From: an uncultured Myxococcales bacterium | Lineage (GTDB): Bacteria > Myxococcota > B64-G9 | Assembly: GCA_964513625.1 (NCBI GenBank) | Contig: CAZENH010000032.1 | Coordinates: 1-64,000, forward strand | Direction of reading: 5' to 3' | Length of the DNA stretch: 64,000 nucleotides | In this document: in pieces, positions 26,346-52,850 of the stretch | How positions within the stretch are numbered: position 1 is the first letter of the stretch | How the letters are laid out: the number at the start of each line of letters is the position of its first letter | Program-made: the position numbers and the translations under genes | The notes under the pieces: generated by a model | Seen by the model: the letters and a program-made list of their open reading frames with translations, nothing else | What the model was told of the DNA's origin: nothing | Databases searched by the model: none

Positions 26346-27374
26346 ATGGCCAAACGATCGAACGGCTACCGGGTAGCAGTCTGCGGCGCCACGGGAGTCG
26401 TGGGCGTCGAGATGGTGCGAGTCCTGGCCGAGCGCTCCTTCCCGGTGGCCGATCTGCGGCTGCTGGCATCGGAACGCTCGGTTGGCGAAGAGCAGACTTT
26501 TCAAGGAAGCGAGGTACGCGTCGAGGCGCTTGAAGAGAACTCGTTTTCGGGCATGGACATCGCCCTTTTCTCCGCGGGCTCGGATGTGTCGCGGACATAT
26601 GCTCCGCTTGCGGCCCGGGCCGGATGTGTGGTGATAGACAACACCAGCGCTTTTCGAATGGAGCCAGACGTGCCGCTGGTAGTGCCCGAGGTGAACCCCG
26701 AGGCTCTTTGTGACTATGCCCGGCGCAGCATCATCGCCAATCCGAATTGTTCGACCATTCAGATGGTGCTAGTGCTGAAGCCGATCGACGATGCGGTGGG
26801 CATCCGGCGCGTGGTGGTCTCGACCTACCAGTCGGTCAGCGGGGCCGGGCGGCGGGGTATCGCCGAGCTCGAATCACAGACTCTTTCGCTGTTCAACCTG
26901 AAGCCCATGGAGTGCGAGCGCTTCCCCCGCCAGATCGCCTTCAACTGCCTGCCGCACATAGACGTGTTCGGTCCGGACGGCTACACTTTTGAAGAACGCA
27001 AGATGATCCAGGAAACCCACAAGATCATGGGCCGGGATGATCTGCGCCTGACCGCGACCACGGTCAGGGTGCCGGTGTTCTACGGCCACTCCGAGGCGCT
27101 CAATATCGAGACCGAGAAAAAGCTCTCGGCTGACGAGGCCAGGAAGCTGCTGGACCGGGCGCCCGGCCTGCGGGTGGTCGACTCTCCGAGCGAGGCGCTC
27201 TATCCCACCGTGCTCGACGCGGTCGGCGGCGACGACACCCTGGTGGGCCGCATCCGCGAAGACCCGTCCGTAGAGTGCGGTCTCGACATGTGGGTGGTGT
27301 CCGACAACATCCGCAAGGGAGCGGCCTTGAATGCCGTCCAGATCGCCGAGTTGCTGATTCGCGACTACATGTGA
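26346..27374 (+). CDS. asd: Aspartate-semialdehyde dehydrogenase
   Basis: N-terminal VAVCGATGVVG Rossmann motif and active-site region NPNCSTIQMV. AAGGAG RBS. The length is typical for Asd. Confidence 0.9.
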   Translation: MAKRSNGYRVAVCGATGVVGVEMVRVLAERSFPVADLRLLASERSVGEEQTFQGSEVRVEALEENSFSGMDIALFSAGSDVSRTYAPLAARAGCVVIDNTSAFRMEPDVPLVVPEVNPEALCDYARRSIIANPNCSTIQMVLVLKPIDDAVGIRRVVVSTYQSVSGAGRRGIAELESQTLSLFNLKPMECERFPRQIAFNCLPHIDVFGPDGYTFEERKMIQETHKIMGRDDLRLTATTVRVPVFYGHSEALNIETEKKLSADEARKLLDRAPGLRVVDSPSEALYPTVLDAVGGDDTLVGRIREDPSVECGLDMWVVSDNIRKGAALNAVQIAELLIRDYM

Positions 27375-27515
27375 TCCTGCTTGACAAAATGGCACGCGGC
27401 GAGCGCCGCGTACAGGGCTTGTGACAAAAGGTCACCGCATTCACCAAGGCCGCCCCTGCGTGCTGGTATCTTCTTGTTATAACAATAGAAAATATTGAAC
27501 AGATGTGTATACTGA

Positions 27516-27530
27516 TGGCACGTTCCTTGC
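27516..27530 (+). promoter_or_regulatory. Candidate sigma-54 (-24/-12) promoter TGGCACG-N4-TTGCG
   Basis: aTGGCACGttccTTGCG has exactly 10 nt between the GG and GC dinucleotides. It lies 51 nt upstream of the 27581 start codon. Confidence 0.5.
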
Positions 27531-27580
27531 GTAGTATTCGAATAACGTGTAAGAGAAGTTGCTAACGAAAGGCAGTCATC

Positions 27581-29527
27581 ATGAAGAGATGGATTCTAAT
27601 TGGCGTGCTTGCGGTAGGTTGGGCATTTCCGGCCCGGGCGGTGTCCGACTATCCGGTGGATCTGAACGTCAGTCTGGTCAAGCCCTCGAACCGGGATTAT
27701 CTCAATATCGAAAGCTGCGCAGCAGCCGCCGAGACCGAGCTGGAGATCTCGTGGACGTTTGATAGCAGTAGCAACACCGCCTGGGTCGGGGAGCAGGAGG
27801 GCGACGTATTTCTGGCCATAGACGATACTTGCGGCTCGGCCCTGGTCGAGATCGGCAAGGTGTCGGGCCAAGGGGTCGATGTCAGCATCAGCGAGGGACA
27901 GACCAGCGGCACGTTTCCAGTGAGCGGCGACGAGCTTTACCTGAGCGACGTTACCGGCCTCGACTGCGCCACCGAAGACGAGCAAGACTACTATTTCTGC
28001 ATCAAGTGGCAGTATGATGAGCCTACAGGCTTCTACAACTACATCTACAGCGGCGGGACGCCGATTCGTTTCGACACTAAGCCGCCCGGCGCGCCCGCAA
28101 TTACTTCGGTCGATCCGGGCGAGACCAACCTGAAGGTCAGGTGGGAAAAACCGTCGGACGACGACCTCGATAGCTACATCCTCCACTACCGAGAGGAAGG
28201 CACAACTGAAGATCACCAGGCGACCGAGACCAACGGCGAGGCGACCAGCTTTCAGATCACCGGTCTGACCAACGACGTTACCTACGAGGTCTGGATGACG
28301 GCCGTCGACGTCGCCATGAACGAGAGCGAAGACTCGAACACCATGACCGGCACGCCGGAACCGGTGGAAGATTTCTTTGAATACTACCGCGGGCAAGGCG
28401 GGGGCGAAGACGGCGGTTTCTGCTTCGTGGCCACCGCCGCTTACGGTTCTTACCAGGATGCAATGGTAGTGCCCTTGCGCGCCTTCAGGGATAGTGTTTT
28501 GATGCCGACTGCTACGGGACGCGGCCTGGTCGCGGCCTACTATCGTTTCGGCCCTCGTTGGGCGCGGGCTATTCGCGGCTCGGACCTGCACCGCGCCGCA
28601 GCGCGATTATCGCTGGCCCCGCTGGTTGTGGCTGCCCGGGCCGATCTTAGTTTGGGAACCTTTGAGCTATTGGTACTGCTTGCAGCACTATTGATACTCG
28701 GGCTGCTTGGAAAGAAATATTTTCAGAAGATGCGGCGCTCGGCACGCGCTTCGGCGCCTCCGGCTCTTATGGCTTTGATTGCCGCGTTGCTGGTCATGGG
28801 AGTCGGCAGCCGGACCCGGGCGCAGGACAAGTCGCATCCGGGCACCGATTCGGATTCCGGCGAGGCCGTCTCTGGCGGCGTACCGAACATGCAGTTCCAG
28901 GTCCGCTTCGGGCCTTATACGCCGCAGGTCGACAGCGAAAAAGACCTCTCTGGCAAGCCTTTCAAGGAGATCTTCGGCGGCGGTAGCGAGATGCTCTTCG
29001 AGTTGGGTCTCGACTACGAGATCTGGCGCGGCTTCGGAGTGGTGAGCGTCGGCGGCTCATTCGGCTTCGTGCAGTACTTGGGCAAGGGTCGCACACAGAG
29101 CGGCGACAAGAGCAGCGACACCACGGTGTTCAACCTGGTGCCTTTCCGGTTGAATGTCGGATATACCTTCGACAAGCTGATGGACTGGTGGCGTATTCCG
29201 TTCGAGCCGTATGTGGTGGGCGGGCTGGACTACTACGTCTGGTGGGTGCTCGACGGCGTGGGTGACATAGCGTCTTACGAGGACGAGTCCGGGAAATCGT
29301 ACACGGCCCGCGGCGGCATATTCGGGGGACACTTCTCGGTCGGGCTGAAACTGCTGCTGGACGTCCTCGACCAGGAGGCGGCCAGTCACCTCGAAAACCA
29401 GGTCGGAGTAATGAATAGCTTTTTCTTTGCCGAGTACAGCATGTCATGGATCGACCAGTTCGGGGCCTCGGGCCATATGAACGTCGGCGACCAGACCTTC
29501 ATGTTCGGCCTGATGATGGAGTTCTGA
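27581..29527 (+). CDS. Secreted protein: Fn3-like domain, CFxATAAYGS...LRxFRD motif, hydrophobic linker and C-terminal beta-barrel-like domain ending in Phe (autotransporter-like architecture)
   Basis: Signal peptide MKRWILIGVLAVGWAFPARA. Fn3-like segment (LKVRWEKPSDDDLDSYILHY). The motif is CFVATAAYGSYQDAMVVPLRAFRDSVL. Two hydrophobic helices follow. The last ~240 aa have alternating hydrophobic strands with a C-terminal ...FGLMMEF. Confidence 0.6.
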   Translation: MKRWILIGVLAVGWAFPARAVSDYPVDLNVSLVKPSNRDYLNIESCAAAAETELEISWTFDSSSNTAWVGEQEGDVFLAIDDTCGSALVEIGKVSGQGVDVSISEGQTSGTFPVSGDELYLSDVTGLDCATEDEQDYYFCIKWQYDEPTGFYNYIYSGGTPIRFDTKPPGAPAITSVDPGETNLKVRWEKPSDDDLDSYILHYREEGTTEDHQATETNGEATSFQITGLTNDVTYEVWMTAVDVAMNESEDSNTMTGTPEPVEDFFEYYRGQGGGEDGGFCFVATAAYGSYQDAMVVPLRAFRDSVLMPTATGRGLVAAYYRFGPRWARAIRGSDLHRAAARLSLAPLVVAARADLSLGTFELLVLLAALLILGLLGKKYFQKMRRSARASAPPALMALIAALLVMGVGSRTRAQDKSHPGTDSDSGEAVSGGVPNMQFQVRFGPYTPQVDSEKDLSGKPFKEIFGGGSEMLFELGLDYEIWRGFGVVSVGGSFGFVQYLGKGRTQSGDKSSDTTVFNLVPFRLNVGYTFDKLMDWWRIPFEPYVVGGLDYYVWWVLDGVGDIASYEDESGKSYTARGGIFGGHFSVGLKLLLDVLDQEAASHLENQVGVMNSFFFAEYSMSWIDQFGASGHMNVGDQTFMFGLMMEF

Positions 29528-29531
29528 GCGC

Positions 29532-30302
29532 TTGTCAGGGAAAGTCCGCCTCACAATTGCATACGATGGAACCCGTTACCACGGCTGGCAGATCCAACCG
29601 GGGCAATCTACCATACAAGGCGAGTTGGAAGAGGCCTTCCTGAAAATGACCGGTCTTACGACCCGGGTTGTTGGCGCCGGGCGCACCGATGCCGGCGTTC
29701 ACGCCCGGGGCCAGGTTGCGGCTCTGGTCAACGAATCGCGGCACTCGCCCGAGGTCATCCGCGAGGGGTTGAACAGCCTGCTGCCAGAGGACATCGCCGT
29801 GCTGGCGGCCGACCAGGCACCCGAAGGTTTCGACCCGCGCCGCGACGCGGTCGGCAAGCACTATCGTTACACGATCCACAATCAGCGGGTGCGCCCGGTG
29901 CTCGAACGCCGCTTTCGCTGGCATATCAAGGCGCCGCTGGACGTTGAGGCCATGCAAGAAGCAAGCGCCTGCCTGGTCGGTGAACACGACTTCTCGGCCT
30001 TTCGGGCGGCCGACTGCGAGGCGAGCCACGCCGTGCGCACGCTAGACAGCATAGTCTGGCGCAGCCGGCCGCCGGCGCTCATTTTGGACATCTTCGGGCG
30101 CGGTTTTCTCAAGCAGATGGTGCGTAACATCGTCGGCAGTTGCGTAGAGATTGGCCGGGGACGCTGGCCGACGGACAAGATGCGCGAGATCCTGGAAAGC
30201 CGCGATCGCACCCGCGCAGGCAAAACGGCCCTGGCACACGGTTTGTGCCAGATGATGGTATACTACCGTCAGGAGGACTACCGGAATGCGATTGCCGACT
30301 AA
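29532..30302 (+). CDS. truA: tRNA pseudouridine(38-40) synthase
   Basis: IAYDGTRYHGWQIQ and the catalytic-Asp region RTDAGVHARGQVA are present. It appears to start with TTG, 4 nt after the upstream stop. Confidence 0.88.
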   Translation: MSGKVRLTIAYDGTRYHGWQIQPGQSTIQGELEEAFLKMTGLTTRVVGAGRTDAGVHARGQVAALVNESRHSPEVIREGLNSLLPEDIAVLAADQAPEGFDPRRDAVGKHYRYTIHNQRVRPVLERRFRWHIKAPLDVEAMQEASACLVGEHDFSAFRAADCEASHAVRTLDSIVWRSRPPALILDIFGRGFLKQMVRNIVGSCVEIGRGRWPTDKMREILESRDRTRAGKTALAHGLCQMMVYYRQEDYRNAIAD

Positions 30303-32253
30303 GGTATGGTTGCCGGGCTGTGTATTTATACTGGTCGCTTTTCTTTGCGGCTGCGGTTCTGAGGAAAGTGACCTCAGTCCCTACAAGGTGCCCGAAGGCT
30401 GCAATCCACTCGCACCGTACGCCGACTGCCTGCTGCCCTATCCCACGGATTATTTCCTGGTCGCCGACGATTCCATGCCCTCAGGGTCGCGTATCCGCCT
30501 GACCGAGCAAGCGACCGTCTACACGCCGGCCGATCACCTGCCCGCCGATCCGACCAGCGTGCACCCGGCGGACGGTTTTTCCCCCGCCGGACCGATTTTA
30601 GCGGTTTTCCCGGCCGGCGTGGATGCGGGCAATCTGGTTTTTCACACCGGCGACGTTTTCGCTTCTCTTTTGCCTTCTAGTCCGACGGTGTTGCTGGATG
30701 CCGAGACGGGCGAGCCCGTTCTGCACTTTGCCGAACTGGATCCAATGGCCGAGAGCGACGATCGCCGGGCCTTGTTTATCAGGCCGCTTGTTCGTCTGGA
30801 AAACCAGAGACGCTATGTGGTGGCCATCCATGATCTGGAAGGCCCGGGTGGCGGCCCGCTGTCCGCCCCCGAGGGCTTCCGGCGCATCCGCGACGGTTTG
30901 ACCGGCGGAGATCCCATCCTGGGGCCGCTGGCCGTGCGTTACGAGAGCGGAATATTTCCGCTGATCGAAGACTTTGGTATTTCGCGCGACAGCCTGCAGT
31001 TGGCCTGGGATTTCAGCACCGAGAGCGAGGAGAATGTCACCGGCGACATGCTCGCGGTACGCGAGATGGTCATGGACTATTTCTCATCGCACGTTCCCGA
31101 GATCTCGATAACACAGGTCACAGACGACGTCGATCAGAAGATCTTTCGCAGGCTGGACGGCACGGTCGAAGTTCCCTTGTACCTGGAAGACGCCGACCCC
31201 GGGGCGCGTCTTTTTCGCGATGCCCAGGGCCGGGTGGCCCAGAACGGGTTGACGCAAGTGCCCTTCACGATGCTGATCCCGCGCAGCCTGGCCGCCCGGG
31301 CGCCCGGAGACCCGCCGGCCAGGGTGCTGCAATACGGCCACGGTTTTTTCGGCGAGCGCGACAGCGAGTCGGAATTGGGTCATCTAGAGGATACCCTGGA
31401 AGACGACGGATTCGTCTTTGTTGCGGCCGACTGGTGGGGGATGTCCAGGCCGGACGTGTTCCTGGTGATCGACGCCATCGCCTCGCGACCCTCGGAGATC
31501 GCGGACTTCACCGATCGCCTGCACCAGGCCATGGCCAACTTCATCGCGCTGGCCTACGCGGTGCAAGGTCCGCTGCTGGAACGGCCGGAGATCCAGGTTG
31601 ACGATCATCCGCTGTATGATCCGGACCAGTTGTATTACTACGGCAACTCCCAGGGCCACATCCTGGGAGGCACCTACCTGGCCCTGTCTCCGCAAATCGA
31701 CCGGGCCGTGCTGGGAGTTGGCGGGGCGTCCTTGACGCTGATGATGCCCCGCGCGCTGCCCTTCGCCTCGTTTATGGAATTCATCAACATGTATATTCCA
31801 GACCCCCTGGACACGCAGAAGTTCATGGTTTTAACACAGACGACCTTCGACAGGATAGATCCGATAACTTATGCCCCGCACCTGCTCTCGAACACCTATT
31901 CCAAAGGACCGTCCGCGCGCAGGTTGTTGATGCACATGGGACTCAACGATACCCAGGTGCCGAACATGGCCACCCAGTACCATGCGCGGGCATTGGGTTT
32001 GAAGCTGATGCAGCCAAGCCCGACGCAAGTTCCAGCCCTTACCGAAGCGGCCTATCCCCTGGACGGCTCGGGCCTGGTGGAGTTCGATCTGGGAGCCGCC
32101 CCCCCGCCCGCCGAGGCCCGCCCGGCCGACGAGGACAGCGGCGTGCACTCACACGTCCGGGAGTTGCCGGCGGTCATCCAGCAGATAGATCTCTTCTTGC
32201 GTCCAGAAGGCCAAATAGAGCAGACATGCGAAGGCGTCTGCGATCCTGAGTGA
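30286..32253 (+). CDS. Secreted lipoprotein, putative alpha/beta-hydrolase (GNSQG nucleophile elbow)
   Basis: Lipobox LVAFLCGCGS with an AGGAGG RBS. GxSxG-like YYYGNSQGHILGG. No confident family assignment. Confidence 0.5.
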   Translation: MRLPTKVWLPGCVFILVAFLCGCGSEESDLSPYKVPEGCNPLAPYADCLLPYPTDYFLVADDSMPSGSRIRLTEQATVYTPADHLPADPTSVHPADGFSPAGPILAVFPAGVDAGNLVFHTGDVFASLLPSSPTVLLDAETGEPVLHFAELDPMAESDDRRALFIRPLVRLENQRRYVVAIHDLEGPGGGPLSAPEGFRRIRDGLTGGDPILGPLAVRYESGIFPLIEDFGISRDSLQLAWDFSTESEENVTGDMLAVREMVMDYFSSHVPEISITQVTDDVDQKIFRRLDGTVEVPLYLEDADPGARLFRDAQGRVAQNGLTQVPFTMLIPRSLAARAPGDPPARVLQYGHGFFGERDSESELGHLEDTLEDDGFVFVAADWWGMSRPDVFLVIDAIASRPSEIADFTDRLHQAMANFIALAYAVQGPLLERPEIQVDDHPLYDPDQLYYYGNSQGHILGGTYLALSPQIDRAVLGVGGASLTLMMPRALPFASFMEFINMYIPDPLDTQKFMVLTQTTFDRIDPITYAPHLLSNTYSKGPSARRLLMHMGLNDTQVPNMATQYHARALGLKLMQPSPTQVPALTEAAYPLDGSGLVEFDLGAAPPPAEARPADEDSGVHSHVRELPAVIQQIDLFLRPEGQIEQTCEGVCDPE

Positions 32254-40956: not shown

Positions 40957-41468
40957 GATCGGTCCCGGCGATATTTGGCTGCCTGCTCTTTTTTCTGGCC
41001 TGTTCGGTCGCGCAGGCGGCACCCGCAGGCGCAAAGTCGCCCGAGGGGCCGGCGGGGCCGGTTGACATACGCTCCGATCGGCTGGTGGTTGAAAAGAAGG
41101 CGCACCGGGCCGTTTTTTCGGGCAAGGTGCGGTTGGTTCAGAAAGATCTCATCATCCTCTGCGACAAACTGGTAGTCAGCTACTCAGACGATAAAAGCGA
41201 GCCCGGCCGGATTACGCGCATGGTATTCAGCGGGGAGGTTTCCATCGAGCAGCAGGACAGGAAGGGGCATTGCGGGCGCGCCGACTACGACCGTACTGTG
41301 GGGTTGATCATCTGCACCGGCAAACCCTGGGTCGTCGAGGGCAAAAGTCGTGTCGAGGGGGAGCGTATCGAATACCATTTGTCCCGTGACGAGGTCAGGG
41401 TCATTCGCCCGCGGGCCGTCATCCAGTTACCCGCGGACGACAATCCCAAGAGTGGTCGTACAAAGTGA
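40953..41468 (+). CDS. lptA: LPS transport periplasmic protein LptA (OstA N-terminal fold)
   Basis: Signal peptide, then an OstA-like pattern (IRSDRLVVEKKAHRAVFSGKVRLVQKDLIILCDKLVV...). GTG start after GGAGGAG. Confidence 0.75.
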   Translation: MRSVPAIFGCLLFFLACSVAQAAPAGAKSPEGPAGPVDIRSDRLVVEKKAHRAVFSGKVRLVQKDLIILCDKLVVSYSDDKSEPGRITRMVFSGEVSIEQQDRKGHCGRADYDRTVGLIICTGKPWVVEGKSRVEGERIEYHLSRDEVRVIRPRAVIQLPADDNPKSGRTK

Positions 41469-42232
41469 ATGCGGCAATCGATAAGACCCCGGCCATGGCC
41501 GACGCGCTTTCGGCCGCTGGCCTTGTGAAGTCGTTCAAGGGTCGCCGAGTGGTGGATGGGGTGAGCTTCGCGGTTGCCCCTGGAGAGATCGTCGGTCTGC
41601 TGGGGCCGAACGGAGCTGGTAAGACGACCAGTTTTAATATCGTCATGGGCTTACTCAGGGCAGACGCCGGGAAAGTAGCTCTCGGTGAACTGGAAGTCAC
41701 CTCGTGGCCGATGTACAAGAGGGCCCGGGCCGGCATCGGCTACCTTTCGCAGGAACCATCGATTTTCAGACGCCTGTCGGTGTCCGAAAACCTGCTTGTT
41801 TACCTCCAGTCGGCCGGAGTTTTCGGCGCCCAGGCCGACAAGCGTGTGCAGCGTGCGATTGAGGAGTTCGATCTGACACAGGTAGCCCATGCCGGCGCCG
41901 CAACCTGTTCGGGCGGTGAGCGACGCAGGGTGGAAATCGCACGGGCCATGATCCGGGGGCCGAGGTTTCTATTGCTGGACGAACCCTTTTCTGGTATCGA
42001 CCCGCTGGCCGTCGGGGAGATCCGGCGTCAAATAGAACGCTTGTCCAGGGAAGGGATCGGCATGCTGGTCACAGACCACAATGTCAGGGAAACCTTGTCA
42101 ACCTGCGACAGAGCATATATTCTTAAGGGCGGCCGGATAATCGAAACCGGCACACCGGCGGAGATTGCCGCAAGTGATAAGGCACGAACGTTGTACCTGG
42201 GCAAAAATTTCCGCCTGGAAGAGACGAGCTGA
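41465..42232 (+). CDS. lptB: LPS export ABC transporter ATP-binding protein LptB
   Basis: Walker A GPNGAGKTT, ABC signature SGGERRRVEIARA, Walker B LLLDEP. Confidence 0.9.
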   Translation: MNAAIDKTPAMADALSAAGLVKSFKGRRVVDGVSFAVAPGEIVGLLGPNGAGKTTSFNIVMGLLRADAGKVALGELEVTSWPMYKRARAGIGYLSQEPSIFRRLSVSENLLVYLQSAGVFGAQADKRVQRAIEEFDLTQVAHAGAATCSGGERRRVEIARAMIRGPRFLLLDEPFSGIDPLAVGEIRRQIERLSREGIGMLVTDHNVRETLSTCDRAYILKGGRIIETGTPAEIAASDKARTLYLGKNFRLEETS

Positions 42233-42234
42233 AG

Positions 42235-43737
42235 ATGGTGGAGCTGAGACAAGTCCTGTCGCTGAAGCAGACCCTGCAACTGGTGATGACTCCCCAGTTG
42301 CAACAAGCCATCAAGCTTCTGCAGCTGTCACGGCTCGAACTCAATGACCTGGTCAACACCGAGATGCTCGAGAACCCCGTGCTCGAGGATGTGCCCGAGG
42401 TCCCGCCAGCCGAGGATACGGCCTCAACCTCCGATGAACGCCAAAATGCTGTAGATGAGAAGATCCAGGATCGTCTCGAACGCACCGAAAGAACGGAAGA
42501 AGTAAAGGGCGGCGAAGGCGCCAACGAGATCGACTGGGAGAAGTACCTGGAGAATTATTCTTCTTATTATCCAGGCGGCGGCCCGCGCGAACGACCCAAT
42601 GAAGATTTACCATCCTACGAGGCGGTATATTCCAAGAAGCCTTCGCTGACCGACCATTTATTGTGGCAGCTACGTCTATCGTCACTCGATGAATACGAGC
42701 AGGATATCGGTGCGCAGATCATCCTCAACCTCAACTCGGACGGTTATCTGGTGGCGGACGACGAAGACCGGCTGGCCGGCAAGACTGCCACGCAATGCAT
42801 CGCAGATTCGTTGGAGATTGAGCAGCAAGAAGTCGAGCGGGTTCTGAAGACCGTGCAGAACTTCGATCCGGTTGGCATCGGTGCACGAGATTTGAAGGAA
42901 TCGTTGCTCATACAGGCAAGACATCTGCAAGTGGAGAATGGCCTGGTATACGCCATAATCGAATCTCATCTTCCGTTTGTTGAGCGTAAGAACTTCCAAG
43001 CCATCGCCCGCGCACTGAAGGTCTCCAAGGACGAGGTCATAGACGCGGTGCGAATTATCTCGCAATTAGAGCCGCGCCCCGGACGGGTTTATTCAGAAGA
43101 GAAACCGCAATACATCACACCGGATATTTTTGTCTACCGCCTGGTTGACGAGTACGTCATCGTTCTCAACGAAGACGGACTGCCAAAACTCAGGATCAGC
43201 CCTTACTATAGACGGACTCTGAGCCAGGCTTCTAGAGGCGGCGAAACTCACAACTACATTCAGGATAAGCTGCGTTCGGCGGTTTGGCTTATTCGCAGCA
43301 TTCACCAGCGCCAGCGAACCATCTACCGAGTAACCGAAAGCATCGTGAAATTCCAACGGGAATTCTTCGACAAGGGTATCTCCTTCCTGAAACCTCTGGT
43401 GCTCAGGGATGTCGCTGAAGACCTGGGATTGCATGAATCGACGGTCAGCCGTGTGACGACGAACAAGTACGTGCATACGCCCCAGGGAATATTCGAGCTG
43501 AAATATTTCTTCAACTCCGGCATCAGCCGGGTGAACGGAGACGACGTTGCCTCGGAGTCGGTCAAGGATCGTATCAGACACATCGTGTCCGAGGAAGATC
43601 CGCAGAAACCGCTCAGCGATCGTGAGATTGTGGCCATGCTCAAGGAGCAAAACATCGACATAGCCAGGAGAACCGTTGCAAAGTACAGAGAAATGCTAGG
43701 CATTCTGCCTTCAGGTAAACGCAAAAAAATGTTCTGA
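42235..43737 (+). CDS. rpoN: RNA polymerase sigma-54 factor
   Basis: N-terminal region I (LQLVMTPQLQQAIKLLQLSRLEL) and the C-terminal RpoN box (ARRTVAKYREMLGI). Confidence 0.92.
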   Translation: MVELRQVLSLKQTLQLVMTPQLQQAIKLLQLSRLELNDLVNTEMLENPVLEDVPEVPPAEDTASTSDERQNAVDEKIQDRLERTERTEEVKGGEGANEIDWEKYLENYSSYYPGGGPRERPNEDLPSYEAVYSKKPSLTDHLLWQLRLSSLDEYEQDIGAQIILNLNSDGYLVADDEDRLAGKTATQCIADSLEIEQQEVERVLKTVQNFDPVGIGARDLKESLLIQARHLQVENGLVYAIIESHLPFVERKNFQAIARALKVSKDEVIDAVRIISQLEPRPGRVYSEEKPQYITPDIFVYRLVDEYVIVLNEDGLPKLRISPYYRRTLSQASRGGETHNYIQDKLRSAVWLIRSIHQRQRTIYRVTESIVKFQREFFDKGISFLKPLVLRDVAEDLGLHESTVSRVTTNKYVHTPQGIFELKYFFNSGISRVNGDDVASESVKDRIRHIVSEEDPQKPLSDREIVAMLKEQNIDIARRTVAKYREMLGILPSGKRKKMF

Positions 43738-43822
43738 ACTATTGCTCGCACCCAGGCACTTGAGATGGCAACATCTTTACAGTTGAGTCAAGTAGTGGTT
43801 ATGGCGTCAACGACAACAACTA

Positions 43823-43856
43823 TCGGCCTTGTCCCGCGCATTTTGCAGGGCTAGCC
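43823..43856 (+). promoter_or_regulatory. Copy 1 of a conserved 34-nt motif tcggccttgtcccgcgcattYtgcRgggYtagcc
   Basis: 31/34 identical to 57848-57881. It sits immediately upstream of the hpf RBS. Confidence 0.3.
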
Positions 43857-43871
43857 CAATTGGGAGGAGTC

Positions 43872-44423
43872 ATGCAAGTATCGGTAACCTTCCGTAACAT
43901 GGATCCCAGTGAATCACTCAAGGCCTACACGTCCGAAAAGTGCTTGCGGCTGAAGAAGTATGTAAGCAAACCGGCGGACATTCACGTCATTCTGGCCAAG
44001 CAGAAGTATCGCAGTCGAGCCGAGATCAAGATTACCCATCACGGTGTGGTGATGAAGGGCGAAGAGAACGGCGAAGACATGTACTCCAGTATAGATCTGG
44101 CGCTCGACAAGGTGGAACGTCAGTTGAGAAAACTCAAGGACAAGAGACGCGAGCACAGGCTGTCGCAGTCCGCTGCGGGGGTCACGGTTCGCCACGGGAT
44201 CGTCTCTCACGAGCCTGCCGGAAACGAGGAAAACGCTCGTATCGTCAACTCTGAAGAGTTTTCGGCCAAACCGATGTCGGTTGACGAGGCCGTTTTGCAA
44301 ATGGAATTGGCCAACAACGATTTTCTGGTTTTTATAAACTCCAGCACCCAGGAAGTGAACGTAATCTACAAGCGGCGCGACGGTGATGTCGGCCTTATCG
44401 AGGCTCAAACGCCACCCGAATGA
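43872..44423 (+). CDS. hpf: Ribosome hibernation promoting factor (long HPF)
   Basis: MQVSVTFRNMDPSESLKAYTSEKCLRLKKY. GGGAGGAG RBS. Long-form C-terminal dimerisation region. Confidence 0.85.
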   Translation: MQVSVTFRNMDPSESLKAYTSEKCLRLKKYVSKPADIHVILAKQKYRSRAEIKITHHGVVMKGEENGEDMYSSIDLALDKVERQLRKLKDKRREHRLSQSAAGVTVRHGIVSHEPAGNEENARIVNSEEFSAKPMSVDEAVLQMELANNDFLVFINSSTQEVNVIYKRRDGDVGLIEAQTPPE

Positions 44424-44541
44424 CAGAGCGGTAGTCTAGTAAGGTACATGCGAGGGTGAAGGAATCTGACTTCTCGGAAGTTCAAGGTAGGTCATAATCC
44501 ACCCTGGATTGTCGAGAAGTTTCAAAGGGAGTTTACAGCCA

Positions 44542-45003
44542 ATGAAAATAGCAACTTTCCTCGATCGCAGCGATGTTTCGATCGATGTGCCATGCCGCAC
44601 AAAAAAAGAGATCCTCAAGATGCTGGTTGATCTCTTGGCGGAAAACCATGCCGAGCTTGACTCCGAACAACTCCTTTCGATTCTCTTGAAGCGCGAAGAA
44701 CTGCGCTCGACAGGCATCGAAGAAGGAGTGGCTTTTCCTCACGGCAGAGTTCCGGGTCTCGATCGGTTGATGGCTTGCTTCGGCAGGTGCCAGGCCGGCG
44801 TGGATTTCGACTCGTTTGATGGCAAGAAGACAAATTTCTTTTTTGTTTTGCTCATTCCCGAACATGCACAGGGAAATCACCTCAAAGCACTGGCCCGCCT
44901 GAATCGCTTGTTCCAAAACGCAGATTTTCGCAAGCGTATCATGAATGCCGGCAGCGCGGACGAAGTTTTCGACGCAATTATCGAGGAAGACAATAGGTGC
45001 TGA
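44542..45003 (+). CDS. ptsN: PTS-Ntr EIIA (nitrogen regulatory protein)
   Basis: EIIA-2 fold with the phosphorylatable His region GVAFPHGRV. AAGGGAG RBS. Confidence 0.85.
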   Translation: MKIATFLDRSDVSIDVPCRTKKEILKMLVDLLAENHAELDSEQLLSILLKREELRSTGIEEGVAFPHGRVPGLDRLMACFGRCQAGVDFDSFDGKKTNFFFVLLIPEHAQGNHLKALARLNRLFQNADFRKRIMNAGSADEVFDAIIEEDNRC

Positions 45004-45887
45004 ACTCAAGTCTACAGCGCGTTCCCTCACCGGTGCGGTTGCTGATCATCAGCGGACTTTCCGGCTCCGGAAAGAGCACGGCCATAAGGGCGCTGGAGGA
45101 TACCGGTTTTTTTTGCATCGACAATTTGCCGATTGTGTTGTTACCCAAGTTAATAGATTTGTTTCCGCGCAGTGGGGAAAATATTGAGCGTATCGCACTC
45201 GTAATCGATGCGCGCGAAGAGCGTTTTCTAAATGAGTTCGACCGCAACATCGAGAGAATCCGCGAAGAGGGTGGCCGGGTAGACGTGGTGTTTCTGGACT
45301 GCGCTGACGAAGTTCTTGTCAGGCGCTACAACGAAACCCGACGCCGGCATCCTGTTGCGCCCGAGGGCTCGGTCGAGGAAGGCATTGCCCGCGAGCGGAT
45401 CATTCTGAAACCGCTACGAGAGGCGGCCGGCCAGGTATTTGACACCACGGCGCTGACTCCACACGAACTGCGGCGTATTATCAGCGATCGTTTCAGCAGG
45501 GTCGAGCCCGGTCAAGAGATGACGATGGCGTTAGTCTCGTTCGGGTTCAAGTTCGGTATTCCCGCCCAGGTACATCTCGTTTTCGATGTCCGTTTTATGG
45601 CCAACCCGTATTTCGACGACAAGCTGCGGGATGAAAACGGTTTGAACCCCGAAGTAGCGGGTTTCGTAATGCGAGATCCGGATGCCGAAAAATTTCTGGA
45701 GCACGTAATCGCCTACCTGGATGCTTTTCGTTCACGCTACAACAACGAGGGAAAGAGTTACTTGACGCTTGGCATCGGGTGCACCGGTGGTAAACATCGT
45801 TCAGTTGTCATGGTGGAGGAACTTGCCCGGCGCTTGAAGTCGGGCGGGTTGGCCGTAGCGGTCAGACATCGCGACCTCAGCGGATAG
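44997..45887 (+). CDS. rapZ: RNase adapter protein RapZ (P-loop NTPase)
   Basis: LLIISGLSGSGKSTAIRALEDTGFFCIDNLP. The GTG start is uncertain. Confidence 0.82.
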   Translation: MLNSSLQRVPSPVRLLIISGLSGSGKSTAIRALEDTGFFCIDNLPIVLLPKLIDLFPRSGENIERIALVIDAREERFLNEFDRNIERIREEGGRVDVVFLDCADEVLVRRYNETRRRHPVAPEGSVEEGIARERIILKPLREAAGQVFDTTALTPHELRRIISDRFSRVEPGQEMTMALVSFGFKFGIPAQVHLVFDVRFMANPYFDDKLRDENGLNPEVAGFVMRDPDAEKFLEHVIAYLDAFRSRYNNEGKSYLTLGIGCTGGKHRSVVMVEELARRLKSGGLAVAVRHRDLSG

Positions 45888-46674: not shown

Positions 46675-48462
46675 ATGTCCAGGCAACGCACCAAGGTATT
46701 CAAGGGAATCGACGCCTCGCCCGGCATTTGTGTCGGACTGGTCCATCTGGTTGATCGGCGCAAGTTTCGTGTTCCCAAGACTCATGTTGGCCGGGAAGAA
46801 ATTGACCGGGAGAAGGAGAGATTTCATCGGGCAGTGGCCGTTAGTGTCTCTCAGCTTACGGCCATCAAGGACAAAATGGCGCGACGCGACCGCCAGGATC
46901 CGACCGCGATTATCGAGGCGCATCTTCTGATGATGCAGGACGAGATGCTAATCGGCGGTACCGAGAAGCTGATCGCCACGCGGGGCATCAACGCCGAGTG
47001 GGCGCTTAAAGACAAGGTGTCCGAGATCCGCCAGGTGTTCGATCGCCTGGAAGACGACTATTTCAGGGAGCGTCGCAGCGACGTCGAATTCGTCGGCCAA
47101 CGCATCCTGCGCAACCTGATGGGCCATGAGGCGGAGGTGCGCCCCCCGGGGCACGAGCGTGCTGTCATCTTGGCCCATGATTTGTCGCCGGTGGATACGG
47201 CCGGTTTGAGCCGCCAGAAAGTAATGGGCTTCGTCACCGAGGTGGGGGGCAAGACGTCTCATACGGCGATCATCGCCCGTTCTCTCGAATTGCCGGCCAT
47301 TGTCGGAGTCGAAGGCATACTTGATAAAGCCGGTATGGGTGACAGGATCATCGTCGACGGTTATCGCGGCGAGGTCATTCTGCATCCTTCCGAGCGCGCC
47401 GTGCAGGAGGCGCTCGTAAGATCACAGGGATTGCGCAGCCGGACCGCCGAGTTGGCCATGGAAAAAGCATTGCCGGCAACTACCCTGGATGATCACGAGG
47501 TCAGGTTGTCTTCAAACCTGGAGATGGTCGAGGAAGTGGAAACGGCGCTGCGTTACGGCGCCGACGGTATCGGCTTGTTCAGAACCGAGTTCCTGTTCCT
47601 CGATCGACGTCCCCCGTCCGAAGGATTCCAGCGACGTTGTTACCAGAGGATTTTAAGGCAGATGAACGGTAGGCCGGTCACAATCCGCACTCTCGATCTG
47701 GGTGGCGACAAAAGACTTCCTTTCCTGCGCTCGGAGCCGGAGGCCAACCCGGCCATGGGGCTGCGCTCGATCCGCATCTGCCTGAGAAACAGGCCACTCT
47801 TCTTGACCCAACTGCGCGCTTTGCTTAGAGCCTCGGTCGACGGCAGGCTGAAGATACTATTTCCCATGATCTCGGTTTTACATGAAATCAGGGAGGCCAA
47901 GGCCCTGCTGCAGGAGGCTCAGGAGCAGCTGCGGGCCAAGGGTCAGGCCTTCAGCGACGACATTCAGGTGGGCATGATGATCGAAGTGCCCTCTGCGGCT
48001 TTCATGAGCGACGTGTTCGCCGAAGAGGTCGATTTCTTCAGCATTGGCACAAACGACCTGATCCAGTACACGCTGGCCGTCGATCGGCAGAATGAGCAGG
48101 TTGCCTACCTGTTCAATCCATTGCACGTATCGATTTTGAGGATGCTCAGGCAGGTGGTCAAGAACGCCCACCAGGCCGGGATAGAAGTGGCCATGTGTGG
48201 AGAGATGGCCGGTAACCCGCTCTACCTGCACATCTTACTGGGGTTGGGGCTGGACGAGATCTCGATGAATCCCCTGGCGCTACCTTATGCGCGTCACTTG
48301 ATTCGCAGCTCGCGCATGAAAGAAGCACGCAAACTCTACCGGAGTGTAATCGAACTACGCGATTCCGGCCACATCCGCAGCAAGGTTCAGGGCTGGATGG
48401 CCAAGCGCTTCCCCGAGTTCTTCACCAAAGAGGGCAACGCCGATATTCTGGGCGGATTGTAG
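46675..48462 (+). CDS. ptsI: PEP-protein phosphotransferase (Enzyme I)
   Basis: GGKTSHTAIIARSLELPAIVG (phospho-His region) and a PEP-utilising C-terminal domain. Confidence 0.9.
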   Translation: MSRQRTKVFKGIDASPGICVGLVHLVDRRKFRVPKTHVGREEIDREKERFHRAVAVSVSQLTAIKDKMARRDRQDPTAIIEAHLLMMQDEMLIGGTEKLIATRGINAEWALKDKVSEIRQVFDRLEDDYFRERRSDVEFVGQRILRNLMGHEAEVRPPGHERAVILAHDLSPVDTAGLSRQKVMGFVTEVGGKTSHTAIIARSLELPAIVGVEGILDKAGMGDRIIVDGYRGEVILHPSERAVQEALVRSQGLRSRTAELAMEKALPATTLDDHEVRLSSNLEMVEEVETALRYGADGIGLFRTEFLFLDRRPPSEGFQRRCYQRILRQMNGRPVTIRTLDLGGDKRLPFLRSEPEANPAMGLRSIRICLRNRPLFLTQLRALLRASVDGRLKILFPMISVLHEIREAKALLQEAQEQLRAKGQAFSDDIQVGMMIEVPSAAFMSDVFAEEVDFFSIGTNDLIQYTLAVDRQNEQVAYLFNPLHVSILRMLRQVVKNAHQAGIEVAMCGEMAGNPLYLHILLGLGLDEISMNPLALPYARHLIRSSRMKEARKLYRSVIELRDSGHIRSKVQGWMAKRFPEFFTKEGNADILGGL

Positions 48463-50754: not shown

Positions 50755-50770
50755 TGGCACATTATGTGCA
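50755..50770 (+). promoter_or_regulatory. Candidate sigma-54 (-24/-12) promoter TGGCAC-N5-GTGCA
   Basis: cTGGCACattatGTGCAg has exactly 10 nt between GG and GC. It lies 53 nt upstream of the 50823 ATG. Confidence 0.5.
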
Positions 50771-50822: not shown

Positions 50823-52850
50823 ATGAGAAAGCTGGTTACTTTTTTCGTGGTCGGGCTTGTAGCTGCGGCTTTTTACGGTTGCGGTGCCGGCGAGAACGAG
50901 GGGCCCGTGGCGTGTGACAGCCTGCCTGACGGAAAGATCAAGCAGGCCTGCATCGACAAAAGCGCGCCCAAGGCCGATCGCTGGGATTCGCAGAATGACC
51001 CGCAACTTTTCGGGGTCAACCTCGATTACCAGCTTGCCAATTTGCCACGCCAGGGCCGGGTACAGCAGGTAGCCTGGCCGTCCACCTACTGGCCTACCTA
51101 CGAAGATTCGGTCAACGTGCGCTGGCAGGGTCAGAGCAGCCGCTCGCCTCTCGAAAAGTACGACATGGCCTTCAATAACTGGACGCCGCCAGCCGATTTC
51201 GACACTCTCGTGCCATTCAAAGACTGCGCCAACGAATTCGACCAGAAGTACTACGACGAGCTCGGTCCGGCGGCCAAGTACTGGAGTGAAAACCACGGCA
51301 ACAAGGCCATGCGCGACATTTGGAACGACCCCGACGGCAAGTGCGAAGAAGCAATCGAAAGCTGGTGGGGTCTGTGCCACGCCTGGGTACCGGCAGCGAT
51401 TCTCGAACCCGAGCCGCAAAAGGCGGTCACCTACAACGGCGTGACCTTCGAAGTCTCGGACATGAAGGCCCTTTTGATCATGGCCTACAATAACTCGTCT
51501 TCCCGCTTCGTCGGGCGGCGCTGTAATGTGCGCACCGACGAGATTGAGCGCGACGAGTACGGTCGCATCAAGCAGGTCGAGTGCCGCGATTCCAACCCGG
51601 GCACGATGCACCTGATTTTGACAAACCTGATCGGGCGCGACAAGCGCGCCTTCGCCGAAGATCGCACCATGAACTACGAGGTCTGGAACCAGCCGGTGAT
51701 CGGTTACGAGGTCAACTCGATGGACGAAAAGACCGAGGATGAGGCAGCCAAGCTGATCGATCCCAATTGTACAAGCCCCTGCGAGTACACCTGGAACACG
51801 GATGCCAAGGGCTTCTACCAGGTTGCGACCGATGTCCACTACGTCACCGAGTCGTCACCGGACACGGTGCCCAAGATCCCGCAGATCGACAGCTACACTC
51901 GAACTGATCACTACGGCTACATCCTCGAACTCGACGGCGACGGCGCGATTATCGGCGGCGAGTGGCTCACGACCAGTGGCGGCTCGTATCCCTCGCGCTT
52001 CAGCAGCCAAATGGCGCACCCCGACTTCTTCTGGCTTCCGCTGCGGGCAGGCTACGCCACCAACCGCAACGCCAGCCTGCAAAAGATCGAGATGCTGGTC
52101 AGGATGAGCCAGGAGGCTCAGCCGAGCCCCGACGGCGACGCCAAGGTATACAAGTCCGACGCGCAGGTCAGCATCCCGGACAACGACAAGGCAGGGGCAA
52201 CCGCCTCGATCGACGTCGGCGACGATCTGACCATCGGCTCGATCAAGGTCACCGTCAACATCACCCACACTTATATCGGTGACTTGACCTTGACGCTCAG
52301 GCACGATGGAAAGGACGTCGAGTTGCAGAAGAACGCCGGGGGCAGCACGGCAAACATCAACAAGACCTTTGAGGTTACTGACTTCAGCGGTTCGGCCAGC
52401 GGCACCTGGGATCTGATTGTGGTCGACAATGCATCCAGGGACACCGGCACCATCGATTCATTCGAACTGGCCGTGATCGAGTCCGGCGGCTCCAGCGGCA
52501 CGGGAGAGTCTTTTGTGAGCAGCGACGCTCTCAGCGTACCCGACAACGACGCCAACGGCGTGCTGAGCACGCTCGACGTTCCGGGCTCCGGCGCGATAAA
52601 GTCCGTAAAGGTGGAGCTGAACGTCAGCCACACCTGGATAAGCGATCTGAAGATCGAGCTTCGGCACGGAACCGGCACCTCGATGCTGCACAATCGCGAG
52701 GGTGACGACTCGGACAACATTGAAAAGACCTACGACGTGGACGAGTTCAACGGAGCGGACAGCGGCGGCGAATGGGAGCTGTGGATCTCCGACAACGCCG
52801 GCCAGGACGTCGGAACGCTCAACTCCTGGAAACTGACCATCGAACGCTGA
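50823..52850 (+). CDS. Secreted lipoprotein with unknown N-terminal ~420-aa domain and two C-terminal proprotein-convertase P-domains
   Basis: AAGGAGGG RBS; lipobox AAFYGCGAG. The N-terminal domain contains WWGLCHAW and downstream His residues, a possible Cys/His catalytic pair. Two P-domain modules end in GDLTLTLRHDGKDVEL...GTWDLIVVDN and SDLKIELRHGTGTSML...GEWELWISDN. Confidence 0.7.
   Translation: MRKLVTFFVVGLVAAAFYGCGAGENEGPVACDSLPDGKIKQACIDKSAPKADRWDSQNDPQLFGVNLDYQLANLPRQGRVQQVAWPSTYWPTYEDSVNVRWQGQSSRSPLEKYDMAFNNWTPPADFDTLVPFKDCANEFDQKYYDELGPAAKYWSENHGNKAMRDIWNDPDGKCEEAIESWWGLCHAWVPAAILEPEPQKAVTYNGVTFEVSDMKALLIMAYNNSSSRFVGRRCNVRTDEIERDEYGRIKQVECRDSNPGTMHLILTNLIGRDKRAFAEDRTMNYEVWNQPVIGYEVNSMDEKTEDEAAKLIDPNCTSPCEYTWNTDAKGFYQVATDVHYVTESSPDTVPKIPQIDSYTRTDHYGYILELDGDGAIIGGEWLTTSGGSYPSRFSSQMAHPDFFWLPLRAGYATNRNASLQKIEMLVRMSQEAQPSPDGDAKVYKSDAQVSIPDNDKAGATASIDVGDDLTIGSIKVTVNITHTYIGDLTLTLRHDGKDVELQKNAGGSTANINKTFEVTDFSGSASGTWDLIVVDNASRDTGTIDSFELAVIESGGSSGTGESFVSSDALSVPDNDANGVLSTLDVPGSGAIKSVKVELNVSHTWISDLKIELRHGTGTSMLHNREGDDSDNIEKTYDVDEFNGADSGGEWELWISDNAGQDVGTLNSWKLTIER

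Follow-up and report, generated by a model that had tools for sequence, protein, structure and literature searches.

The question raised by this locus is what kind of surface protein is encoded behind a sigma-54-like promoter element, and whether that protein exports itself through its own C-terminal domain. In the stretch of DNA analysed here (64,000 nucleotides, hereafter the window), the ORF at 27581-29527 (+ strand) specifies a precursor of 648 aa. A preliminary description had listed an upstream promoter, a signal peptide, an Fn3 domain, a conserved-looking motif, two hydrophobic helices and a C-terminal beta domain, and all of these features were found where it had placed them. It had also stated that the protein does not resemble known ones, which has to be revised since all three protein parts match curated NCBIfam models, in the order NF045522 (below its cutoff), NF041770 and NF040596.

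The precursor begins with a predicted Sec signal peptide (aa 1-20, ARA|V; 27581-27640, + strand), read from the sequence and seen as a helix at residues 2-14 in the AF2 model, with the predicted cut at MKRWILIGVLAVGWAFPARA|VSD. The acidic exported part that follows (27644-28351, + strand) resembles SgmI/MXAN_2561 and was delimited by Pfam, NF045522, the AF2 model, PDB matches and composition. It consists in the model of an Ig-like domain with four Cys (aa 22-165) and an Fn3 domain (aa 173-257); Pfam places Fn3 at aa 174-252 (E=3.9e-10). The MXAN_2561/SgmI equivalog model NF045522 gave 126.5 bits, under the cutoff of 150, and orthology with SgmI is therefore not established: the two proteins are related, not equivalogs. 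When the full-length model was compared with the PDB by Foldseek, tandem FnIII matches were the only ones obtained and the barrel drew none.

Next in the protein comes a CFI-box domain (aa 281-357; 28421-28651, + strand), supported by NF041770, motif conservation, the predicted helices and the hydrophobic moment. The NF041770 (CFI-box-CTERM) model scored 75.3 bits over aa 281-349, well above its cutoff of 40, and the motif CFVATAAYGSYQDAMVVPLRAFRD at aa 281-304 (CFVATAAYGS...LRxFRD) is kept in essentially every homologue. The domain opens with the invariant Cys281 and is predicted to form basic amphipathic helices, as judged from the model, charge and hydrophobic moment. The MYXO-CTERM model gave no match to the ORF protein; its tag is CFI-box-CTERM. 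The split relatives described below and unrelated CFI-box proteins have the CFI-box at their C-terminus; in this protein 299 further residues come after it. Directly after the domain lie a predicted transmembrane anchor (aa 360-377) and a basic cytoplasmic loop, KKYFQKMRRSAR (aa 378-389; together 28658-28747, + strand); the first gene of split relatives ends with the equivalent of these two segments. Some CFI-box proteins of a short form have no transmembrane helix at all, so it is possible that the CFI-box is not a sorting tag of the classical kind. A literature search on CFI-box-CTERM found no paper, a PDB sequence search with the region gave zero matches, and other CFI-box proteins encoded in the 64-kb window were not found. 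To our knowledge, no processing enzyme or cognate protease has been assigned to the CFI-box.

The C-terminal domain (aa 437-648; 28889-29527, + strand, stop codon included) belongs to the MXAN_2562 family of 8-stranded outer-membrane beta-barrels, with 192.9 bits against a cutoff of 100 for NF040596 (aa 437-648, model positions 2-208 of 208). Modelled alone, it folded into a closed beta-barrel of 8 strands. Its end, ...FGLMMEF, can be read as a beta-signal G-L-M-M-E-F terminating in Phe; the consensus of the C-terminal signal recognised by BAM is GxxΦxF with an aromatic end. Other 8-stranded barrels, of the NspA, OmpA N-domain, OprF N-domain, OmpW and OmpX class, share only 10-18% identity with it, and it differs from them in having longer loops that include short helices and in having a CFI-box protein as its obligate partner. 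When homologues of the barrel by itself were searched for, only 13 close metagenomic proteins came back, with no named Myxococcus protein among them. The earlier proposal that the C-terminal ~240 aa form an outer-membrane beta-barrel is thus upheld by the predicted fold and by NF040596, and its likening of the order passenger, helix, barrel to a type Va autotransporter is not. In a self-exporter of that type, the barrel pore would thread the N-terminal Fn3 passenger and a helix would serve as plug. The sole feature that speaks for such a route is that one polypeptide carries signal peptide, passenger, helix and barrel in this order, and the linear arrangement of passenger and barrel in one precursor is all that is shared with type Va proteins. 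We consider this route extremely improbable, because the barrel has 8 strands and not the 12 of the translocator, the Pfam autotransporter beta-domain (PF03797) was unmatched at E<=1, and the two helices are apolar membrane segments with a basic loop between them and an AxA at the end of the second, neither of them being placed to thread a pore. Moreover, a disordered linker follows the AxA site in place of a polar helix within the pore, and the barrel of split relatives is a secreted protein in its own right. We concluded that the ORF protein is not an autotransporter and that this tempting annotation should be corrected.

What the protein is instead becomes apparent from its relatives. In split relatives the two halves are encoded by separate overlapping genes, each product with a signal peptide of its own: gene 1 stops 106-129 aa past the CFI Cys, after a transmembrane helix and an Arg-rich tail, and the barrel gene starts within an ATGA that it shares with gene 1. 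Full-length homologues of the fused protein number about 50, with identity down to 31%. In a profile search of 1.8 billion representatives, the fused full-length form was found in at least 48 clusters at 50% identity, a count taken from single-stretch full-length matches alone, as giant multi-Fn3 proteins dominate that search and the other matches are not informative. The fusion is also present in MAGs outside Myxococcota, in a rumen/UBP6 group. An assembly artefact or a pseudogene was considered as the origin of the fusion and ruled out by its wide conservation and its presence in an independent assembly, Logan SRR9700626, which holds an identical 648-aa protein. The ORF thus appears to be a natural fusion of two partner envelope proteins whose genes are separate and translationally coupled in other Myxococcota. 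Being translationally coupled or fused across at least 48 divergent lineages, SgmI and the MXAN_2562 barrel look like an obligate unit, which argues for joint action in 1:1 stoichiometry. Within the fused clade, locus L012 is apparently split, probably by a frameshift; the near-identical P0005 is fused.

Between the anchor and the barrel we found what looks like an internal signal peptide, with its h- and c-region at aa 390-414 (28748-28822, + strand) and TRA414|Q as the predicted signal peptidase I site. For the hydrophobic helix at aa 360-377 <H> is 0.81 and for that at aa 390-408 it is 0.70, and both are apolar. Among 47 homologues, the internal segment has Ala at -1 in 43 and at -3 in 40, with 1-7 K/R ahead of the h-region; this protein carries Thr instead of Ala at -3 (T-R-A|Q). 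The segment shares homology with the signal peptide at the N-terminus of barrels encoded by standalone genes, and we read the second hydrophobic helix as the relic signal peptide of the barrel and the first as the CFI-box membrane anchor. It is followed by a linker predicted to be disordered (aa 415-436; 28823-28888, + strand; pLDDT below 50). Across homologues only 4-23 aa separate the cut site from the first strand, which is too short for an uncut chain to cross the periplasm. Signal peptidase I would accordingly cleave the precursor into a 1:1 pair. If the precursor stayed uncleaved, it would be a single inner-membrane protein held by a hairpin of the two helices, and its Fn3 part and its barrel, then an 8-stranded one of the soluble type, would both be periplasmic. 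This arrangement is unlikely: the best structural matches are integral outer-membrane barrels with much higher Z, NF040596 is curated as an outer-membrane barrel family, the last residues form a BAM-type signal with Phe at its end, the AxA site is kept in 40-43 of the 47 sequences, and standalone barrels have predicted cleavable signal peptides.

Cleavage of a continuous precursor must also be weighed against mainly separate synthesis of the halves. In that case ribosomes would initiate the barrel at Met384 (nt 28730), and the loss of a stop codon would have produced the long ORF as a side effect. In split relatives the ATG of the barrel gene falls at precisely the position of M384, which appears to be a relic of that start codon; a purine-rich stretch, GGAAAGAAA, lies upstream of it. 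Separate synthesis is nevertheless decidedly improbable. There is no stop codon, so all ribosomes on the first half read on, and the fusion is stable in at least 48 divergent clusters. Met is missing at this position in nearly all other fused homologues, in which the barrel half nonetheless stays under strong purifying selection; the barrel is therefore not generally made from an internal start.

From the above observations, export of the continuous precursor could proceed as follows. The N-terminal signal peptide would start Sec export, the transmembrane helix of the CFI-box would stop transfer and leave the basic loop in the cytoplasm, and the internal signal peptide would let translocation resume. 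Signal peptidase I would then cut after the conserved AxA (TRA414|Q), and BAM would insert the freed barrel in the outer membrane via the C-terminal GxxΦxF signal. The outcome would be a strictly 1:1 pair: the barrel and, as its partner, an Fn3 protein that is anchored in the membrane and may be sorted further. Overall, we think that a sigma-54-dependent unit probably encodes an SgmI-like Fn3/CFI-box plus barrel fusion. The identities of the domains, the fold, the existence of split relatives and the conservation of the fusion, the promoter and the boxes are observations of this analysis; the cleavage, localisation, activator and function we infer. A tentative extension, which we regard as possible and somewhat doubtful, is that the fused ORF is an envelope polyprotein from which signal peptidase I releases the barrel and a CFI-box-anchored Fn3 protein, with the barrel as a dedicated receptor or anchor. 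The pair might then constitute a two-component surface display system apart from type V, and the CFI-box might be a new sorting or anchoring signal interchangeable with MYXO-CTERM.

The closest known system is that of Myxococcus xanthus. MXAN_2561 (SgmI) is an Fn3 protein with a C-terminal sorting tag that has been implicated in type-IV-pilus-dependent motility; MXAN_2562, apparently co-transcribed with sgmI, is a predicted outer-membrane barrel, and insertions in both genes gave similar fitness profiles (bioRxiv 10.64898/2026.08.28.747804). In both systems an exported Fn3 protein carries a C-terminal membrane tag that contains a Cys, and a barrel of the MXAN_2562 family comes directly after it. 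They differ in that M. xanthus has two genes and a MYXO-CTERM tag, whereas here one ORF with an internal barrel signal peptide carries a CFI-box-CTERM, and the N-terminal half here falls below the equivalog cutoff. Going by this homology, a role in cell-surface adhesion or type-IV-pilus-dependent social behaviour is likely. Proteins with MYXO-CTERM tags are displayed at the surface after myxosortase has cleaved the tag (PMC11980579). The CFI-box shares with these tags an invariant Cys, a transmembrane helix and a basic cytoplasmic tail and sits where the MXAN_2561 family has its own tag, but its Cys and transmembrane helix are set apart by conserved, basic amphipathic helices spanning ~75 residues. 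Its replacement of MYXO-CTERM at the same position may provide a first contextual clue to this unpublished domain. A similar gene arrangement is seen in traA, whose product bears a MYXO-CTERM tag, and traB, which overlap by four bases and act together (PMC3325183). There, too, a surface protein with a Cys-TM-Arg tag lies directly upstream of an envelope partner, as in the ATGA overlap of the split relatives here. The likeness does not extend to sequence homology with TraA (PA14/Cys repeats), and the OmpA peptidoglycan-binding domain of TraB is absent here. In the literature searched, no traA-traB fusion was found.

The cytochrome b/c1 precursor FbcH of Bradyrhizobium is a polyprotein cut at an internal signal peptide. 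Its proposed counterpart here shares the succession of a stop-transfer helix and an internal signal peptide, with cleavage giving two mature membrane or exported proteins at 1:1, as do viral glycoprotein polyproteins (PMC7926653). These proteins are unrelated to the ORF here, and a literature search on bacterial internal-signal-peptide polyproteins yielded nothing usable. The ORF may serve as a testable example in which an internal signal peptide delivers an outer-membrane barrel from a polyprotein. We know of no described case of such a polyprotein releasing an outer-membrane beta-barrel.

As to expression of the unit, the putative sigma-54 promoter (27516-27531, + strand; -24 TGGCACG / -12 TTGCG) reads TGGCACGTTCCTTGCG, with its -12 GC placed 51 nt ahead of the ATG at 27581. 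It was read from the sequence and is conserved in orthologues. It agrees with the consensus TGGCAC-N5-TTGCW (GG-N10-GC) at 11 of 12 positions. The motif could in principle be a chance match, in which case asd read-through or a sigma-70 promoter would drive transcription: TGGCACGNNNNTTGCW with one mismatch is expected 0.56 times per window by chance, matches of at least 10/12 occur 10 times in the window (two strands), a weak sigma-70-like match overlaps at 27486-27513, and the + strand has no terminator after asd. Taken alone, the promoter match would be compatible with chance, and its significance comes from conservation. Retention of the element at orthologous loci had been set beforehand as the test of this promoter, and a match of at least 10/12 was present upstream of the gene in 12 of the 12 closest orthologous loci and in several distant orthologues, against a background of 37 in 936 kb (0.04 hits/kb). 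Because the element is kept in these 12 and in many distant orthologues while the flanking intergenic DNA diverges, two upstream boxes lie at fixed distance from it, and rpoN is present in the window (42235-43737; Sigma54 AID, CBD and DBD domains), chance is a very improbable explanation and the promoter looks like a real, functional sigma-54 promoter. The same scan (>=10/12) did not find the motif upstream of the rumen/UBP6 fused homologues, and the link between regulation and architecture is thus not a strict one.

The two boxes were recognised when the orthologous upstream regions were aligned by eye. The distal box, TGACAAAATGGCA (27382-27394, + strand), is a candidate site for an enhancer-binding protein, and the proximal box, TGACAAAAGGTCA (27422-27434, + strand), is 40 bp from it. 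Among loci with the promoter, 17 of 18 contain the distal box as TGACANNNTGKCA (<=1 mismatch), at a rate of 5.8/kb versus a background of 0.03/kb, i.e. about 180-fold enriched. In loci L001-L012 the distance from the distal box to the -24 element is always 128-135 nt, and the proximal box is kept as TGACAAAAGGTCA or TGACAAAAAGTGCA. These TGACA-N3-TGKCA-type boxes, in the range of ~80-150 bp upstream where activator sites are expected, are candidate activator sites, and an activator may bind there. The second sigma-54 promoter of the preliminary description, at 50755, is conserved too. That description took the two promoters as a sign of a small regulon of surface proteins, which is possible, both being of the sigma-54 type. 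A shared activator for both promoters, considered as a further possibility, is unsupported and not indicated, as boxes of this type are absent upstream of the 50755 promoter. An activator gene for the sigma-54 promoter was not found in the 64-kb window. An Rfam search of 27300-29700 gave zero matches to a known riboswitch or leader, and literature searches for a PilR site consensus and for fimV, truA and asd together gave nothing usable and no paper, respectively. Downstream, truA begins 4 nt past the ORF stop with no terminator found between them, so the transcription unit may be larger and partly driven from elsewhere. The conserved promoter and its two-box enhancer could provide a handle for finding the cognate activator. 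Between the boxes and the promoter lies an AT-rich spacer (27470-27514, + strand) that includes the palindrome TTGTTATAACAA; most orthologues have an AT-rich stretch as well, and the spacer is possibly a DNA-bending region.

The 648-aa ORF that starts at ATG 27581 and stops at 29527, 3' of the promoter-like element TGGCACGTTCCTTGCG (27516-27531), has all the features listed in the preliminary description: the promoter element, an Fn3 domain (aa 174-252), the motif CFVATAAYGSYQDAMVVPLRAFRD (aa 281-304), a pair of apolar helices and a C-terminal domain rich in strands, with Phe as the last residue. Three NCBIfam models match the protein: the MXAN_2561 family (NF045522) at aa 51-285 with 126.5 bits, which is below the cutoff of 150, CFI-box-CTERM (NF041770) at aa 281-349 with 75.3 bits (cutoff 40), and the MXAN_2562-family outer-membrane barrel (NF040596) at aa 437-648 with 192.9 bits (cutoff 100). 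MXAN_2561 of M. xanthus is SgmI, an Fn3 protein that is implicated in type-IV-pilus-dependent motility and bears a C-terminal sorting tag; MXAN_2562, a predicted outer-membrane barrel encoded directly 3' of sgmI, appears to be co-transcribed with it, and insertions in the two genes show similar fitness profiles (bioRxiv 10.64898/2026.08.28.747804). The three matches and the M. xanthus pair indicate that the window ORF is a known gene pair fused into one, with the sorting tag exchanged for another.

In the full-length AF2 model (pLDDT 85), aa 22-165 and aa 173-257 each fold as a beta-sandwich, the CFI region comprises four helices (aa 283-357), and aa 360-388 form a long transmembrane helix. 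A short helix at aa 395-405 is followed by a disordered stretch and eight long strands. These strands and the NF040596 match bear out the outer-membrane beta-barrel first proposed for the C-terminal domain. The proposed likeness to type Va autotransporters was rejected. The figures for structural matches to the barrel were 16.7 for NspA, 15.6 for Legionella porin III and the OprF N-domain, and 15.0 for OmpW and OmpA, vs only 7.8 and 7.4 for the autotransporter beta-domains of BrkA and AIDA-I. Since an 8-stranded barrel has no passenger pore, the analogy fails by mechanism as well as by membership, and the locus is not an autotransporter. The exported part contains four Cys and is strongly acidic (50 D/E vs 11 K/R). 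The CFI domain, which is basic and includes a helix of strong amphipathicity (muH 0.56), carries the invariant, unpaired fifth Cys of the protein, Cys281. In other proteins the CFI-box is found at true C-termini as a short form lacking the transmembrane helix, and also as a long form that has this helix and a basic tail. A literature search on CFI-box-CTERM found no publication, and a PDB sequence search with the CFI-box region found no relative.

Homologues show that the fusion of the Fn3/CFI-box half with the barrel half is real. The architecture is common to approximately 50 full-length homologues (600-700 aa) with identity down to 31%, at least 48 of the best 150 cluster representatives (50% identity) match over the full length in a single stretch, and an identical protein is present in an independent Logan assembly. 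We recovered 75 genomic loci, mostly from uncultured Myxococcota or "Deltaproteobacteria" MAGs. The fused form also occurs in the rumen/UBP6 group (L023-L044, L049, L054), with a different N-terminal domain, in which long Asp/Glu/Asn-rich inserts are found, and with the motif CFVATAGFGSYFHP. In at least 16 split loci the CFI-box protein has a transmembrane helix and an Arg-rich tail at its end, 106-129 aa past its Cys, and the barrel gene starts at an ATGA overlap and has its own signal peptide. At locus L037 (Anaeromyxobacteraceae) two separate products match NF041770 and NF040596, respectively. Fused and split forms fall into separate large clades in a neighbour-joining tree of barrel domains, and both states are thus evolutionarily stable. 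The sole "split" locus within the fused clade, L012 (1184-2243), shows a frameshift in the basic loop relative to the near-identical fused protein P0005, and its split probably stems from misassembly or from a very recent fission.

When 47 fused sequences were aligned, the junction showed a fixed order: the CFI box, the YYRYGPRWARAIRGS helix, a transmembrane helix, a basic loop with 1-7 K/R, and another hydrophobic segment, in which Pro or Gly is frequent, that ends with Ala at -3 (40/47) and -1 (43/47). A linker of 4-23 aa then leads to the first barrel strand (FQLQxRFGPYxP). In the window protein the junction reads KKYFQKMRRSAR-ASAPPALMALIAALLVMGVGSRTRA|QD. From the basic loop to the Ala site, the segment is built like a Sec signal peptide that has a predicted signal peptidase I site. 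Met384 of the window protein corresponds to the start codon of the barrel gene in split relatives; other fused forms do not conserve this Met, and the whole precursor must therefore normally be translated to make the barrel. Linkers can be as short as 4 residues, too few to span the periplasm, and the barrel would therefore have to be cleaved from the precursor to reach the outer membrane.

The promoter match at 27516 is not significant by itself, with 0.56 expected by chance per window at one mismatch. Ten sigma-54 matches of at least 10/12 were found on both strands of the window, and only the two at 27516 and 50755 lie between genes in the correct orientation. Conservation of the element, the check proposed for it, was found 5' of the gene in 12/12 closest orthologous loci (45-81% protein identity; at least 10/12 match, GG/GC fixed) and also in L032, L037, L046, L048, L056 and L057, vs a background of 37 in 936 kb. 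Upstream regions aligned on the promoter revealed two more conserved boxes (window 27382-27394 and 27422-27434; consensus TGACA-AWW-TG(G/T)CA); in three loci the box is perfectly palindromic (TGACAAATTGTCA). The box pattern is present in 17 of 18 promoter-bearing loci (5.8/kb vs 0.03/kb). In L001-L012 the distal box and the -24 element are always 128-135 nt apart, and in L004 and L007 the promoter-to-ATG distance is altered, yet the box-to-promoter distance is kept. Boxes and promoter together are arranged as in an enhancer-dependent sigma-54 promoter. The organism encodes sigma-54, as a classical lptB-rpoN-(hpf/ptsN-sized ORFs)-rapZ cluster lies within the window (41465-45887), with a gene for PTS enzyme I after it (46675-48462). 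No activator gene was seen within the window, no sigma-54 motif was found 5' of the rumen/UBP6 homologues, and an Rfam search of 27300-29700 returned no element. A GC-rich hairpin with a 9-bp stem (GCACGCGGCGAGCGCCGCGTAC; 27392-27413) lies between the two boxes and extends into the distal one, whose right half it covers; it is terminator-like on the minus strand only, and its conservation in L001 is not obvious.

The second proposed sigma-54 element, TGGCACATTATGTGCA (50755-50770), is located 54 nt 5' of the ATG (50823) of a gene for a secreted transglutaminase-elicitor/P-domain protein (50823-52850). It is probably real too, since GG-N10-GC is kept in 7/7 orthologous metagenomic loci (L076-L081, L083; 66-93% identity in the best segment), with 9-11 of 12 consensus positions and 38-58 nt 5' of the start. 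TGACA-N3-TGKCA boxes are absent upstream of 50755, and the two genes have sigma-54 in common, though probably not the activator. Another short element, GCTGGACAAGAAAGGGATTTT, 5' of the same gene is common to close relatives only.

The closest known system is sgmI-MXAN_2562 and the closest studied analogue is traA-traB, in which the gene of a MYXO-CTERM surface receptor overlaps that of an envelope partner by four bases and both act together (PMC3325183); myxosortase cuts off the MYXO-CTERM tag for display at the surface (PMC11980579). The window locus is of this kind, in a form that is fused, has an internal signal peptide, bears a different, uncharacterised Cys-containing tag and is preceded by a well-defined sigma-54 enhancer-promoter.

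Most of the approximately 70 loci examined (L001-L071; window 26346-30302), the non-myxobacterial rumen/UBP6 group included, preserve the order asd, fused/homologous gene, truA; both flanks are present in many loci and at least one in nearly all, even at 30% identity. In Gammaproteobacteria the place between asd and truA is taken by fimV/hubP, a positional parallel with SgmI: FimV belongs to the type-IV-pilus proteins, and the same has been reported of SgmI. A literature search on this arrangement returned no paper. There is no terminator-like site between the barrel stop and truA (29525-29535), which starts 4 nt past the stop; truA, a housekeeping gene, may be transcribed together with the sigma-54-dependent gene or from a promoter within the barrel coding region. 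Overlapping the truA end, a 655-aa predicted lipoprotein (30286-32253; N-terminus ...FLCGCGSEE) lacks a Pfam match, and no counterpart was found outside L001, the closest relative. A dense envelope/surface gene cluster (561-24264) encodes OmpA/CarboxypepD_reg/PEGA proteins, a FecR-domain protein, a Ser/Thr kinase, a 2527-aa ORF, an Fn3 protein and an 1825-aa protein that ends in a proprotein-convertase P-domain resembling that of the 50823 gene.
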